The position numbers and the translations under genes were made by a program. A model generated the notes under the pieces. It made no database searches. It was not told the DNA's origin and saw only the letters and a program-made list of their open reading frames with translations. Of a stretch of DNA of 42,311 nt, positions 2,886 to 7,091 are shown piece after piece; the first letter of the stretch is position 1, and each line of letters starts with the position of its first letter. Source of the stretch: Verrucomicrobiota bacterium (GTDB lineage: Bacteria; Verrucomicrobiota; Verrucomicrobiia; Limisphaerales; UBA11358); the NCBI GenBank assembly GCA_050013895.1, contig JBEKEJ010000001.1, positions 1 through 42,311 on the forward strand. The letters are read 5' to 3'.

Positions 2886-3968
2886 TTACCGCTGGATGCG
2901 GGCCGAACCGCCTTTGGCAAAGGCCTTCACCTGCTCCACGGTCGCCATCGTCGTGTCGCCGGGGAACGTCGTCAGCAACGCGCCGTGCGCCCAGCCCAGC
3001 TTCACCGCCTGTTCCGGTTCCTCGCCCGTCAGCAGGCCGTGGAAAAATCCCGACGCGAAGCCATCGCCGCCGCCCACGCGGTCATACACGTTCAGTTCGG
3101 CCGTCGGCGCGGTGTAGGTCTTCCCGTCAATCCACGCCACGGCGCTCCAGCTGTGATGGTTGGTCGAGTGGACTTCGCGCAGCGTGGTGGCCACAATCTT
3201 CGCCTTCGGATATTTCTTCACGACCTGGTCCATCATCCCGAAGAACACGCTCGGATCGAGCTTGGACTTGGCGACCACGTCCGGGCCTTTCAAGCCCAGG
3301 CCCTTTTGCAAATCCTCCTCGTTGCCGACGAGGACGTCGCAATGCTCGACGATGCGTTTCATCACCGACAACGCCTTTTCCTGTCCGCCCCAGATGTCCC
3401 AGAGCTTCTGGCGGAAGTTCAAATCGAACGACGTGATGGCGCCCGCCGCCTTCGCCGCCTTCATGCCTTCGATGATCAGCTCACCCGTGGTCTCGGACAG
3501 CGCCGCGAAGATGCCGCCGCTGTGGAACCAGCGCACGCCCTGGCCGAAGATTTCCTTCCAGTTAAAATCGCCCGGCTTGAGCAAGCCGCCCGCCTCGTTG
3601 CTGCGGTTGTAGAACACCACCGGCGCGCGCACGCCGTAGCCCCGGTCGCTATAGACCGTCGCGTGGTTCGGGCCGCGCACGCCGTCGTGCTTGAACCGCT
3701 TGTAGAACGGTCTCACGCCCATCGCCTTCACGCGCTCGGCAATCATGTCGCCGATGGGATAATCCACCATGGCGGTGGCGATGCCGGTGTTCATGCGGAA
3801 ACAATCGGCGAGGTTAGCGGCGCAGTTGAATTCGCCGCCGCTGACGTGGATTTTGCATTCCGTGGCCTTGCGGAAGGGGATGATGCCTGGATCGAGGCGG
3901 TGGACCAGAGCGCCGAGGGACAAAAAGTCCAGCGCGCCCTTTTCGGGGATGTTCAAACCATATTTCAT
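2886..3968 (-). CDS. PfkB-family carbohydrate kinase (2-dehydro-3-deoxygluconokinase-like)
   Basis: The ATG at 3968 within ORF 2886..4247 gives MKYGLNIPEKGALDFLSLGALVHRLDPG. The C-terminal PfkB signature is DRVGGGDGFASGFFHGLL. The 93 codons upstream in the ORF are REP-derived. Confidence 0.8.
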   Translation of the reverse strand: MKYGLNIPEKGALDFLSLGALVHRLDPGIIPFRKATECKIHVSGGEFNCAANLADCFRMNTGIATAMVDYPIGDMIAERVKAMGVRPFYKRFKHDGVRGPNHATVYSDRGYGVRAPVVFYNRSNEAGGLLKPGDFNWKEIFGQGVRWFHSGGIFAALSETTGELIIEGMKAAKAAGAITSFDLNFRQKLWDIWGGQEKALSVMKRIVEHCDVLVGNEEDLQKGLGLKGPDVVAKSKLDPSVFFGMMDQVVKKYPKAKIVATTLREVHSTNHHSWSAVAWIDGKTYTAPTAELNVYDRVGGGDGFASGFFHGLLTGEEPEQAVKLGWAHGALLTTFPGDTTMATVEQVKAFAKGGSARIQR

Positions 3969-4160
3969 TTTATATTCCTCACGATACAAGTTTTTCGCCG
4001 GCTCATTTTCGGATAAAGATCCCGAATGACCCGGGGTTTTGGTGCGCGACAGAACTAGCACGGCGGGCGCGGTTTGTCTGTAAAAAAGTGGGAATGTGGA
4101 GCGCCGATCTCCGATCCGGCGCATATTTGAGACCATCGCAACAGCGCCGAGCCGCCCGTC

Positions 4161-4168
4161 CTCCGTAG
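4161..4168. repeat. Target-site duplication, left copy (CTCCGTAG)
   Basis: This 8-mer abuts the left IR. The identical 8-mer abuts the right IR at 6469-6476. Confidence 0.85.
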
Positions 4169-4189
4169 GGCAATAATATACTTGACTCA
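4169..4189. repeat. Left terminal inverted repeat (IR-L)
   Basis: GGCAATAATATACTTGACTCA. Its exact reverse complement is at 6448-6468. Confidence 0.9.
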
Positions 4190-4426
4190 TTGGCTTTTCT
4201 TTAGTAGGAAAAATACCCCTGTGTAAATCACGCCTAGAACAAACCATTCAGACCAAAGTTTGAGCAGGTCTGGTCGGTAATGATTCTCCGGCTGGATAAA
4301 AAATAAGCTCAACCTTTGATGGTGTTGATGAATAATTGGGTCGTTGTAATACCACGGACACAATGTCAGCGTTGCCGCAAAAAGGACGAGACATACAGCC
4401 GTCAGATATTTTTGAGGTTTGTTCAT
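4187..4426 (-). CDS. Small two-TM membrane protein (IS passenger ORF, start uncertain)
   Basis: The ATG at 4426 gives MNKPQKYLTAVCLVLFAATLTLCPWYY...LWSEWFVLGVIYTGVFFLLKKSQ, with two hydrophobic helices. A longer version initiated at TTG 4597 would overlap the transposase stop. The stop codon (4187-4189) lies inside IR-L. No Shine-Dalgarno motif precedes 4426. Confidence 0.4.
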   Translation of the reverse strand: MNKPQKYLTAVCLVLFAATLTLCPWYYNDPIIHQHHQRLSLFFIQPENHYRPDLLKLWSEWFVLGVIYTGVFFLLKKSQ

Positions 4427-4574
4427 AAACTTTGTTTTGGATTTTGTTGTGATTTTCTTTTCACGCGCTCGTCCCTGATTTTCTTGTTCAACTCCGCCTT
4501 GGGAACCCGCATTAACCCCTTGGCAAGAGCTTGGAACTTTTGGAACGGAGTTTTCCCCGATATGGTTTTTTGAT

Positions 4575-5513
4575 TCATACTGGTCGAGGTTCTCCAATCA
4601 GTCGTGAATAGGTCAATCGTTTTCCAAAAATGCCTTTGACAGCTTCCAAAAAACGGTTTGAGTCGTTTTCTTCCCTCAAATTAAACCGAAACGCCTGTTC
4701 GTCGAGGTAGCGAAACAAATGAAATGGCTCGACGCTGACATAGGTGCCCTTGATGCCCCGTTTGAGCAGGCTCCAGTAATTTTCCATGCCGTTCGTATGC
4801 ACATTGCCGCGAACGTATTCTTTTGCATGGTCAATCACTTGATGGATGAAATCGCGCGCAAGCCCTTTGTATCCTACCCAATAGTCAGTGAAAATTTGTG
4901 CGCCTTTCTCGACGTTTTGATAAACCTCGTTTTGGAGCGTCTGTAATTTTGTATTGGGGATGTGTTTGGTTTTAACCTTACCATCCCGCTCCAAAATCCC
5001 CATGACGATTGCCTTGCCAACTCCGCCCGTGCCGCGTCCACGTCTGCGATTTCGGTCTTTGTGCATATTGCGGGAAAGCCCGCCAATCCAAGTTTCGTCA
5101 ATCTCGACCTCTCCGTTGAACTTTTCAAAGGTGCCAGTCTGCATGGCGAGTCTTATTCTTTGCAGCATGAACCAGGCTGTTTTTTGCGTGACTCCGATTG
5201 CCCGATGGACTTCATAGGAACTGACACCGTTTTTATCATTGGCAATCATCCAGATTGCCGTAAGCCATTTGTCCAACGGCAACGCACTATCTTCAATAAT
5301 CGTGCCGACGCGCACGGAGAACTGGCCTTTTTTTGTGCAGCGTTTGCATTTCCAGATTTTGCGCGTGGCGATGAATGAAACATCTTCGCATTGGCAGCGC
5401 GGGCATTTCACCTTTTCAGGCCAGCGCAGTTTAACCATGAAATCAAACGCCACTTGCTGATCTGCAAAATAGCGGACTGCTTCGACTAGGGTTTGTGGAA
5501 ATTCGTTATTCAT
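4575..5513 (-). CDS. IS1595-family transposase (zinc-ribbon N-terminus + ISXO2-like DDE domain)
   Basis: The ATG at 5513 gives MNNEFPQTLVEAVRYFADQQVAFDFMVKLRWPEKVKCPRCQCEDVSFIATRKIWKCKRCTKKGQFSVRVGTIIEDSALPLDKWL..VEIDETWIGG. This is the classic IS1595 transposase layout. Confidence 0.9.
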   Translation of the reverse strand: MNNEFPQTLVEAVRYFADQQVAFDFMVKLRWPEKVKCPRCQCEDVSFIATRKIWKCKRCTKKGQFSVRVGTIIEDSALPLDKWLTAIWMIANDKNGVSSYEVHRAIGVTQKTAWFMLQRIRLAMQTGTFEKFNGEVEIDETWIGGLSRNMHKDRNRRRGRGTGGVGKAIVMGILERDGKVKTKHIPNTKLQTLQNEVYQNVEKGAQIFTDYWVGYKGLARDFIHQVIDHAKEYVRGNVHTNGMENYWSLLKRGIKGTYVSVEPFHLFRYLDEQAFRFNLREENDSNRFLEAVKGIFGKRLTYSRLIGEPRPV

Positions 5514-6393
5514 TTTCTTTTTTTGATTTAGTTTTGTCGTCCTTGGACGCGGCTGCCATCGCGCGTGCAAACGCATTGTTCCTAACAGATTGGATTGACT
5601 CTCTTTCCCTTTGCGACTTGGCCACCAATTCCTTTAAGAAGTCACGGTTTCGGTAAGCTTTTCCAAGTTCGTCAACTCTTGCTGCTATATTGGAAAGTTC
5701 CTCGACTTCTTTTTGGGGGAACATTTGGACGTAAGCGTCTTTATTGTCTATTAATTGCTTCAAAATTTGTCCGGTCAGAGAGGTCATACTGTGAATAATT
5801 CCGAGTTTCGTTTTTCCCCCACAGTAAGCATCGTGTTTTTTAACTATTTCCACCACATAAACAGCGAGCACCGCAGCGTGATCGAAAACCATGTCCGGCG
5901 CAGAAAGTTCACTCAATAAATAAGCACCCAAATTTGCCCCGCATCCAATCGCTTCATAAAATGAATTCACTTTGTTTGCTATTCCAACAATCATGTCTAT
6001 TGTAAAAAGACAGGGCTTGCCGTCGAAAAAATAGGCAATCATCAGTTCGCATCCCAACTCATGTTTCCAAACAAATTCGCGCAGTTCTTCCACCGTGCAA
6101 TCGCCTTGTTGAAATCGAACCCTGTCTTTTAGTTGCCGCATGGCTCGTTCCGCAAGTTCTGCAACCATTCTGTAATCGGTAATTTCCTTGTCTTTTGCCA
6201 AGCTGTTAAAAATTTCAACCGCTTGTCCTGAAAATGGCGCATACCCAGCCTGCGCGACTAAAGCGGTAAGGTTGGCAAACTCGACACTGCTTATCTTTTC
6301 CGTATCGGTTCGCTTCGTCGTGCCAGATGTGGTCTGACTATCACTGGCCAATACGATTGCATTTTCACAAATTATTCCGACGATGATTGTCAC
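5506..6393 (-). CDS. Proteasome-beta/HslV-type Ntn (N-terminal threonine) hydrolase with a roughly 100-aa C-terminal extension
   Basis: The GTG start at 6393 is preceded by AAGGA. The N-terminus is (M)TIIVGIICENAIVLASDSQTTSGTTKRTDTEK, which places Thr at residue 1, Asp at 17 and Lys at 32. A G-x-G turn is present as AIGCGANLG. The stop overlaps the transposase ATG (ATGAATAA). Confidence 0.65.
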   Translation of the reverse strand: MTIIVGIICENAIVLASDSQTTSGTTKRTDTEKISSVEFANLTALVAQAGYAPFSGQAVEIFNSLAKDKEITDYRMVAELAERAMRQLKDRVRFQQGDCTVEELREFVWKHELGCELMIAYFFDGKPCLFTIDMIVGIANKVNSFYEAIGCGANLGAYLLSELSAPDMVFDHAAVLAVYVVEIVKKHDAYCGGKTKLGIIHSMTSLTGQILKQLIDNKDAYVQMFPQKEVEELSNIAARVDELGKAYRNRDFLKELVAKSQRERESIQSVRNNAFARAMAAASKDDKTKSKKENE

Positions 6394-6447
6394 TGGATTT
6401 TTCCTTTTCGTTAAGCGTTGCGGAAAAGGATGCCGAAGCTGACAGTG

Positions 6448-6468
6448 TGAGTCAAGTATATTATTGCC
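6448..6468. repeat. Right terminal inverted repeat (IR-R)
   Basis: TGAGTCAAGTATATTATTGCC is the exact reverse complement of 4169-4189. Confidence 0.9.
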
Positions 6469-6476
6469 CTCCGTAG
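6469..6476. repeat. Target-site duplication, right copy (CTCCGTAG)
   Basis: Identical to 4161-4168 and directly abutting IR-R. Confidence 0.85.
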
Positions 6477-6673
6477 CAGCACTACTGCGGAGGGTGGAGA
6501 GGCCGGCGCTCCGATGGCAGTGTCAGGTTACGCCAATTCCCGCTGCCGCTTTTTCTGGACAAACTTTTTGGCAGGGCGCAATGTCAAAAACATGAAATCG
6601 GACAGGCTGCATGGCACAAGAGACAGGCTGTACGATGCGGCGTCCAATATCGGTTAGGCTGACTTAGATTGTC

Positions 6674-6928
6674 GTGAAGCTTAGAAATCCAGTTTGGTGG
6701 CTCTTAACAGCGGGGTGTTTGGGTGCGGTTCTTAGCTGTTTAGGATTTTACGTCTTCCCTCCAGACCGAGTCGGTGTTGGCGATCCTGGATTTTGGACTG
6801 CCACTTGCCTTGCACTTCTCTTTTGGTTTGGGGTTATTTTGTTGGCCGTTTCATTGTTGGCGGGCATAGCGGGAGTGATTCGACATTCCTGTAGATGCGG
6901 CAAGCAGAAGAATGTGCCAAGCAGATGA
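6674..6928 (+). CDS. Hypothetical small membrane protein
   Basis: GTG-initiated 84-aa ORF with two hydrophobic segments (WWLLTAGCLGAVLSCLGFYVF and ATCLALLFWFGVILLAVSLLAGIAGVI). No recognisable family. Confidence 0.3.
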   Translation: MKLRNPVWWLLTAGCLGAVLSCLGFYVFPPDRVGVGDPGFWTATCLALLFWFGVILLAVSLLAGIAGVIRHSCRCGKQKNVPSR

Positions 6929-7091
6929 CATGAATCCTCAGCCTAATATGAGGATAGCTGTAAACTTCACCGATTGCTCGTTCGATTTTTTCCAAGAAAG
7001 TGAAAAGGCGGCTCTCTGCCGGGGAGCCGCTGCGAATCAGTTCCGAACGTTGCCACACCGGATGCGCGTGGTGTAAGTTGGGCCGGAATTT

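Follow-up and report, generated by a model that had tools for sequence, protein, structure and literature searches.

An IS1595-family element in a Verrucomicrobiota contig with a proteasome-like peptidase as probable exchangeable cargo

We analyzed a contig of 42,311 bp (the window) from an NCBI metagenome-assembled genome (MAG) labelled Verrucomicrobiota bacterium, which contains a 2300-bp insertion sequence (IS) element at 4169-6468; its insertion site is intergenic, with a PfkB kinase gene on one side and a Lar_N-like gene on the other. The element is bounded by perfect 21-bp terminal inverted repeats (TIRs), with GGCAATAATATACTTGACTCA at 4169-4189 (IRR, the end farther from the gene starts) and the exact reverse complement of this sequence at 6448-6468 (IRL, the gene-proximal end), which includes an inward-facing TTGACT. 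These two copies were the only matches to the TIR in the window, even at 3 mismatches, and none of 100 shuffles contained a match. Immediately outside the two ends lie identical copies of the 8-mer CTCCGTAG, which form a target-site duplication at 4161-4168 (+ strand, downstream end of the element) and 6469-6476 (gene-proximal copy); by simple arithmetic, the chance of two given 8-mers agreeing is 4^-8, or ~1.5e-5. The GC content was 45.0% in the 2300-bp interior vs 59.5% in the remaining window. An initial annotation made from the letters of this DNA had reported perfect 21-bp TIRs, an 8-bp duplication and an AT-richer interior, and all three were borne out. Since the GC content of the sibling elements described below was 45-49% whatever their flanks, low GC is a trait of the whole IS lineage and provides no evidence for a recent insertion. 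The same occupied locus was also found in one JGI metagenome contig and one Logan contig.

The element contains four genes, all on the minus strand and linked in a chain by start/stop overlaps, in the order peptidase, transposase, orf51 and membrane open reading frame (ORF) from the 6468 end. IRL is followed by a 54-nt leader (6394-6447, minus strand) with a purine-rich Shine-Dalgarno-like GAAAAGGAAAAA and a conserved block GGCATCCTTTTCCG, and then by the peptidase gene (5506-6393; 295 aa; PF00227) in the 5' cargo slot, with a GTG start directly before a Thr codon. The peptidase ORF overlaps by 8 nt (ATGAATAA) with that of an IS1595-family DDE transposase of 312 aa with an N-terminal zinc ribbon (4575-5513; NF033547, PF12762 and PF12760). 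The transposase stop overlaps by ATGA with the start of orf51 (4423-4578), which encodes a basic two-helix protein of 51 aa and is kept in the siblings, and the orf51 stop overlaps by another ATGA with the ATG at 4426 of a 79-aa membrane ORF (4187-4426) in the 3' cargo slot, the stop codon of which (4187-4189) falls within the TIR. The distance from the TIR to the passenger start was 75 nt in the window and 72 nt in the siblings. The leader is conserved among the proteasome-bearing siblings, and in siblings with other or no cargo it is replaced right after the TIR. The initial annotation had correctly placed the genes on one strand and noted the 8-nt overlap of the first two. Its count of three ORFs has to be raised to four, as it overlooked the conserved 51-aa ORF (4578..4423). 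We rejected the 136-aa ORF starting at TTG 4597, which is also in the JGI annotation, because both orf51 and the 79-aa ORF have homologues at the same positions in siblings. The 136-aa reading is most likely an artefact spanning the two genes, both of which should replace it in the contig annotation.

The transposase matched the three relevant profile hidden Markov models (HMMs) above their curated cut-offs: 192.1 bits for NF033547 (cut-off 75; E = 1.1e-56; profile positions 2-215 of 215), 141.5 bits for PF12762 (cut-off 27; E = 2.9e-41) and 48.3 bits for the zinc-ribbon PF12760 (cut-off 25.4; E = 9.6e-13). The assignment to the IS1595 family in the initial annotation, which an HMM search could have contradicted, is thus upheld, and the protein is full-length. 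Across 28 clade members, residues C37, C40, C56, D139, D210, N245, K251 and R252 do not vary, and all of them are kept here; C59 and E244 are nearly invariant, and the cysteines are arranged as CxxC…CxxC. The HTNGMENYWSLLKR block contains E244/N245 and K251/R252, with K251 located 7 residues after E244. By analogy with the family, D139, D210, E244/N245 and K251/R252 would be the catalytic residues. The dN/dS of the transposase was 0.04-0.14, indicating purifying selection. The element thus has the IS1595 features that were examined, namely the family profile, the zinc ribbon, the DD + E/N residues with the K/R spacing, and TIRs with an 8-bp duplication. Members of the IS1595 family make 8-bp duplications, and typical members need one ORF only. 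The groups that carry passenger genes, termed transporter IS (tIS), are ISNwi1+ and ISPna2+, and the ISNwi1 subgroup has ends of the form ggnnatTAT and a DDEK motif. The end GGCAATAAT differs by one mismatch from this ISNwi1 consensus, and the element may belong to this subgroup. The nearest transposase on any annotated plasmid was 41% identical, and the closest transposases were named at the family level only. In the wider search, close relatives of the transposase amounted to roughly 8,000 clusters.

Searches with the passenger, the transposase, orf51 and the TIR led to sibling elements, for which we use L-numbers as locus labels. At different loci, nine more complete elements carry these 21-bp ends with 0-4 mismatches. 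In gene orientation, the duplications are CTACGGAG in the window, GTAAAAAG in L006, TTGATTTG in L008, CTAATTTG in L009 and CAAAAAAG in L057; those of the other siblings are GGAAGAAA (L066), CAAGTTAG (L071), CTGCGTTT (L076), CTAAATAG (L078) and CAAAATAG (L089). The 8-bp duplication of each sibling is perfect and its own, so that with the window there are ten independent insertions, and nothing but the 21-23 bp ends is shared by every element. Because the nine siblings share the ends and each has its own perfect duplication, the whole unit transposes. The initial annotation had said that it would fail if the same interior genes occurred at this locus without the TIRs or the 8-mer, and no such case was encountered.

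The 8-mers of 11 elements fit a loose pattern, C-(A/T)-A-A-A-(A/T)-A-G, although this sample is too small for statistics. A target preference is suggested by this pattern and by the recurrence of CAAAATAG in L018 and L089, whose sites are unrelated. The L018 element (L018:4929-7405) possesses both TIRs, but its flanking 8-mers are unlike each other (CAAAATAG and GTTTCGTT), which would fit the outcome of recombination between two copies or of an adjacent rearrangement. We considered whether L018 and L089 represent one site with different cargo; CAAAATAG is common to both, but their flanks are unrelated, and this was rejected. Two related elements with different duplications lie within a few kb of the orthologous genes for the CCA-adding enzyme (PolyA_pol) and rpsU in two different Verrucomicrobiota genomes (regions window 2886-4160 and L058:756-4507), which could be a coincidence or a regional preference. 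TIR matches were found on six viral contigs; two of these, L073 and L075, are without IS genes and may be chance matches.

Comparison of the siblings distinguished a constant part of the element from an exchangeable one. L076 has the same ends, a transposase of 56% identity and an orf51-like gene, but its left end leads directly to the transposase without any 5' gene. In L066 and L089, the 5' slot is occupied by an unrelated gene encoding 260/269 aa (L066:2217-2999 and L089:2183-2992). Nothing occupies the 3' slot of L008 and L009, and in other elements this slot contains assorted small ORFs, several of which encode membrane proteins. The histories of the modules disagree as well. The transposases of L057, L006 and L008 are 93-94% identical vs 32-57% for their peptidases; L009 has the transposase closest to that of the window (85%), yet its peptidase is only 41% identical, and L057 has the closest peptidase (70%) with a transposase of 76% identity. 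DNA identity changes abruptly at the peptidase/transposase boundary, and between L006 and L008 the synonymous divergence (dS) was 0.62 in the transposase gene and saturated in the peptidase gene. Some members of the peptidase family have no transposase nearby. The same ends with no or another 5' gene, together with the disagreeing module histories, indicate that the peptidase is exchangeable cargo and not part of the transposition machinery. Judging from this comparison, the core of the element is made up of the two ends, the transposase and orf51, with the 5' slot (from the left end to the transposase) and the 3' slot (from orf51 to the right end) being exchangeable.

The 260/269-aa family contains a conserved Rx4H motif (RNNVMH, RNPIAH) and gave no match in Pfam, PADLOC, NCBIfam or PDB and a marginal one in PHROG. 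Going by this motif its members may be HEPN-type nucleases, an identity that we did not adopt. Another occupant was encountered in L074 (IMG/VR contig IMGVR_UViG_3300034236_000061, 11338-12602), where the TIR GGTAATAATATACTTGACTCA is followed by the gene of a 354-aa RelA/SpoT-domain protein, which matches the PADLOC candidate defence family PDC-S33 over its full length (E = 1e-111). It is overlapped by a 59-aa ORF similar to orf51, with no transposase between, and the sequence stops before a possible right end.

The product of the first gene had been called an Ntn hydrolase in the initial annotation, and by profile, residues and predicted fold it can now be specified as a proteasome-type Thr1 peptidase. 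It matched PF00227 with 41.1 bits (gathering cut-off 22.4). Within the family T2 is nearly invariant and D18 and K33 are invariant, which correspond to Thr1, Asp17 and Lys33 of the proteasome, and D188, equivalent to Asp166, is kept. The residue preceding the Thr was V, M or L in 174 of 176 family members, indicating that the start codon is located there, that there is no propeptide, and that only Met removal is needed to expose the nucleophile. In the databases, many homologues are listed with a basic N-terminal extension that ends in 'PV' and might be taken for a propeptide; the V, M or L before the Thr identifies these extensions as over-calls. In the over-extended public calls (P0004, P0025, P0026, P0053, P0305, P0359 and others) the IS end itself is translated, and 'GNNILDS' is the translation of GGCAATAATATACTTGACTCA. 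This systematic annotation artefact can be used as a marker of this IS clade. Among 42 distant members whose over-called N-terminus is long enough, 11 had a TIR-like motif at the expected offset vs 0.8% of shuffles; as read from these upstream sequences, the link of the peptidase to IS ends reaches into the distant family.

The AlphaFold monomer model of the peptidase (pLDDT 92) has a proteasome-type αββα core followed by a C-terminal helix of ~65 residues. Foldseek returned Anbu and proteasome β first (e.g. PDB 5nyw, 5nyg, 1j2q and 3h4p), with a probability of 1.00 and a TM score of ~0.7 relative to the target; sequence identity to those solved structures was 14-20%. When the family profile was compared with PDB sequences, the best match was an archaeal β subunit (E = 3e-10), and Anbu matched weakly. 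The dN/dS of the peptidase was ~0.10, indicating purifying selection, with the C-terminal tail being its fastest-evolving part. An exhaustive profile search (E ≤ 1e-30) placed at least 406 clusters at 50% identity in the family, of which a word-indexed search recovered only 58. Among seven genome matches, six were labelled Verrucomicrobiota or its lineages, and the seventh and weakest (24% identity) was an unclassified MAG. The peptidase is predicted to be catalytically competent.

An orf51 gene follows the transposase at the same position in nine siblings, its start overlapping the transposase stop in eight of them. The gene is 45-52 aa long in the clade, with the conserved core GKTPFQKFQALAKGLMKVPKAELDKKI and a dN/dS of 0.11-0.43, and it is absent from the annotation of this genome. 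All 91 clusters of the family are hypothetical or unnamed, and none has a Pfam domain. AlphaFold (pLDDT 77) predicted helices at residues 11-23 and 27-45, forming a two-helix hairpin, and a basic tail. An IS1-like frameshift fusion of the transposase and orf51 was considered and rejected, as no slippery sequence was seen at CCAGTATGAATC and the ATGA overlap fits translational coupling. Speculatively, orf51 is most likely an accessory factor of transposition or expression. The 79-aa ORF has two hydrophobic windows predicted to be transmembrane segments and gave no match in Pfam, NCBIfam, PADLOC or PHROG. Homologues of 51-52% identity (E = 2e-25 and 3e-26) are located at the same position in L078 and L089.

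From these results we conclude that the element at 4169-6468 is very probably an intact tIS of the IS1595 family with the peptidase as its exchangeable cargo. By analogy with the family, the zinc-ribbon DDE transposase would recognize the 21-bp ends GGYAATAATATACTTGACTCA, and the whole unit would be inserted at staggered cuts 8 bp apart, giving rise to the 8-bp duplication. The anatomy of the element suggests that its four genes form one packed minus-strand operon, with translation coupled via ATGAATAA, ATGA and ATGA, and transcription presumably begins at the gene-proximal end. The peptidase would ride as cargo, dispensable for transposition, and may help the element persist. It is plausible that the insertion is recent and still active, because the element is undamaged in its ends, its duplication and all of its ORFs, and none of the clade-invariant residues has been lost from the transposase.

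A number of observations weigh against parts of this interpretation. In the peptidase, two cysteines that are invariant or nearly so, C151 ('GCG') and C191 ('HDAYCGG'), stand where canonical proteasome subunits have Ser129 and Ser169, and peptidase activity therefore cannot be assumed. No sigma-70 consensus promoter was predicted in the leader or left end, where a promoter/terminator scan remained at the background level, so that a promoter in the leader can only be inferred. No empty site was found: exact-protein look-ups of both flanking genes and two adjacent small ORFs returned the occupied locus or nothing, the junction sequence itself having not been searched. There was no second copy in the window, the exact peptidase and transposase were found only at this locus (in three assemblies), and each sibling checked occupied a single site per population across many metagenomes. 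The tight translational coupling and the leader kept in proteasome-bearing copies also fit a functional link between the peptidase and the transposase. As for a role in defence, which is taken up below, no match to the peptidase was found in PADLOC-DB 2.0 (nor to orf51 or the 79-aa protein), and the idea draws on neighbouring genes in a handful of loci.

The functional link just mentioned would make the proteasome-like protein an integral transposition accessory in a two-component IS, for instance a dedicated protease by which the transposase or a host factor is processed or kept in check. This explanation agrees with the 8-nt overlap between the peptidase stop and the transposase start, with the leader and fixed spacing between TIR and start in proteasome-bearing copies (72 nt in siblings and 75 nt in the window) and with the purifying selection on the peptidase. 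It also agrees with the company of the peptidase with transposases 66% to 86% identical and with the TIR-like sequence that 11 of 42 distant members have upstream at the expected offset. We nevertheless consider it improbable: L076, without a 5' gene, and L066 and L089, with an unrelated one, still have perfect 8-bp duplications, the modules differ in their histories, the neighbourhood of some homologues lacks a transposase, and one ORF suffices in typical IS1595 members.

The insertion could also be an old, fixed and immobile relic, kept intact by selection on its cargo. Its presence in all three assemblies that contain the locus, its single copy in the 42-kb window and the single site of every examined sibling across many metagenomes are what a relic would show. 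The perfect ends and duplication, the intact transposase with its dN/dS of 0.04-0.14 and the ten different insertion sites across the clade speak for mobility instead, as does the occurrence of many family members on 1-3 kb contigs, as expected for assembly-breaking repeats; the lack of a matching duplication in L018 fits recombination between two copies. On balance, the relic is possible, although rather unlikely. A third possibility is that the inverted repeats and 8-mers surround a small island of horizontal origin by chance, for which the one copy in the window might be cited. Its probability is negligible, since no shuffle out of 100 gave a match, the same ends bound nine more elements that each have their own perfect duplication, and 8-bp duplications are characteristic of the family to which the transposase belongs.

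Regarding the function of the cargo, the likeliest single role of the peptidase, held with low confidence, is a selectable conflict or defence-type one that would aid the persistence of the element, a suggestion that we make tentatively because of the neighbouring genes (PDC-S33 in L074, and methylase-Mrr, SocA/Panacea and PIN genes) and the diversifying tail. Homologues outside the IS architecture adjoin methylase-Mrr fusions, a SocA/Panacea protein and a PIN protein. In L010 (5001-8373) and L046 (5001-8873), the neighbour of a distant homologue of the passenger is an N6/N4 DNA methylase fused to an Mrr-type endonuclease. An IS1595 transposase of 37% identity is located between the homologue and methylase-Mrr in L010, which may be another cargo-carrying IS, and a SocA/Panacea antitoxin-domain protein is also present in L046. 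The transposase itself had a marginal match in PADLOC-DB 2.0 (E = 0.0036) over the zinc ribbon. A broader proposal, which we regard as rather doubtful, is that the clade forms a cassette platform in which the 5' slot is swapped, its commonest occupant, an undescribed clade of Cys-substituted proteasome-like peptidases without propeptide, is a mobile conflict or defence effector, and orf51 is a new accessory protein shared by the units; the peptidase may alternate in that slot with PDC-S33-type RelA/SpoT and Rx4H-motif proteins.

Some further features of the insertion site were recorded. In the reconstructed target (4100-4168 joined to 6477-6550), the junction is GCCGCCCGTCCTCCGTAGCAGCACTACTGCGG, and the duplicated 8-mer forms one arm of an imperfect hairpin, CTCCGTAG-CAGCACTA-CTGCGGAG (window 6469-6492). 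The intergenic stretch right of the insertion (6477-7090) is likewise GC-poorer, at 49-54%. It contains, at 6674-6928, an uncalled 84-aa ORF with hydrophobic segments; an exact-protein look-up showed that this exact protein is absent from the records. The operon of the element faces the PfkB kinase gene, which is on the same strand and starts ~200 bp past the right end (window 3968-4168), and read-through from the IS could change the expression of this gene. Rfam and tRNA scans of the window gave no matches.

The tIS, IS copies with passenger genes, were defined for the IS1595 family by Siguier, Gagnevin and Chandler (2009), as cited in PMC3129680. The element in the window resembles them in its zinc-ribbon DDE transposase, its short TIRs starting with GG, its 8-bp duplication and its extra non-transposition genes between the ends. 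It differs from them in its proteasome-like cargo, in the gene of 45-52 aa after the transposase and in an exchanged 5' slot that is translationally coupled to the transposase. Neither the joint occurrence of 'proteasome' and 'IS1595' nor a proteasome-like IS cargo was found in the literature searched; the 2009 paper and ISfinder were outside this search and may record some.

Like Anbu and the proteasome β subunits, the peptidase has an αββα Ntn-hydrolase fold, equivalents of Thr1, Asp17 and Lys33, and no propeptide. It shares a C-terminal helical extension with Anbu, although its helix of ~65 residues is much longer. The sequence match to Anbu was weak (E = 3e-4 for a designed Anbu and up to 5e-3 for other chains), and the peptidase was not classed as Anbu. 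Anbu has a conserved operon context; the peptidase gene, in contrast, is located in an IS beside a transposase, and not in an Anbu operon or a 20S α/β pair. From proteasome β it differs in having cysteines in place of the active-site Ser129 and Ser169. It resembles HslV as a propeptide-less bacterial Thr1 peptidase and weakly matched the PHROG 'peptidase HslV family' (E = 4e-9). Unlike HslV, it has a large C-terminal extension and no adjacent HslU gene, its neighbours being IS genes only, and it was therefore not placed in that family. HslV chains were not among the PDB sequence matches to the family profile at E ≤ 0.01.

Proteasome homologues carried by phages, PPH and AAH, were described by Fuchs, Alva and Lupas (2021; PMC8665760), with PPH having ~140 residues. 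Their survey, with 22 groups, covers phage-borne members only, and its text does not contain any word beginning with 'transpos'. These homologues and the peptidase are alike as proteasome-like genes spread by mobile genetic elements, the former being phage-borne and not IS-borne. Mobile insertion cassettes (MICs), in which non-transposase genes lie between IS ends, are mentioned in PMC3129680. L074 is similar to them, in that genes for the PDC-S33 protein and an orf51-like protein follow its TIR without an intervening transposase, with only one end seen, whereas the element in the window has a transposase gene of its own.

Passenger-carrying elements of the IS1595 family are already known; the proteasome-like cargo and the conserved small gene after the transposase appear to be new. 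A proteasome-family peptidase that is carried and shuffled by an IS provides a handle on stand-alone propeptide-less Thr1 peptidases in bacteria. The conserved gene of 45-52 aa may be an unrecognized IS accessory factor, and the cassette-like swapping at two defined slots, seen among elements whose transposases are nearly identical, bears on the boundary between IS and transposons.

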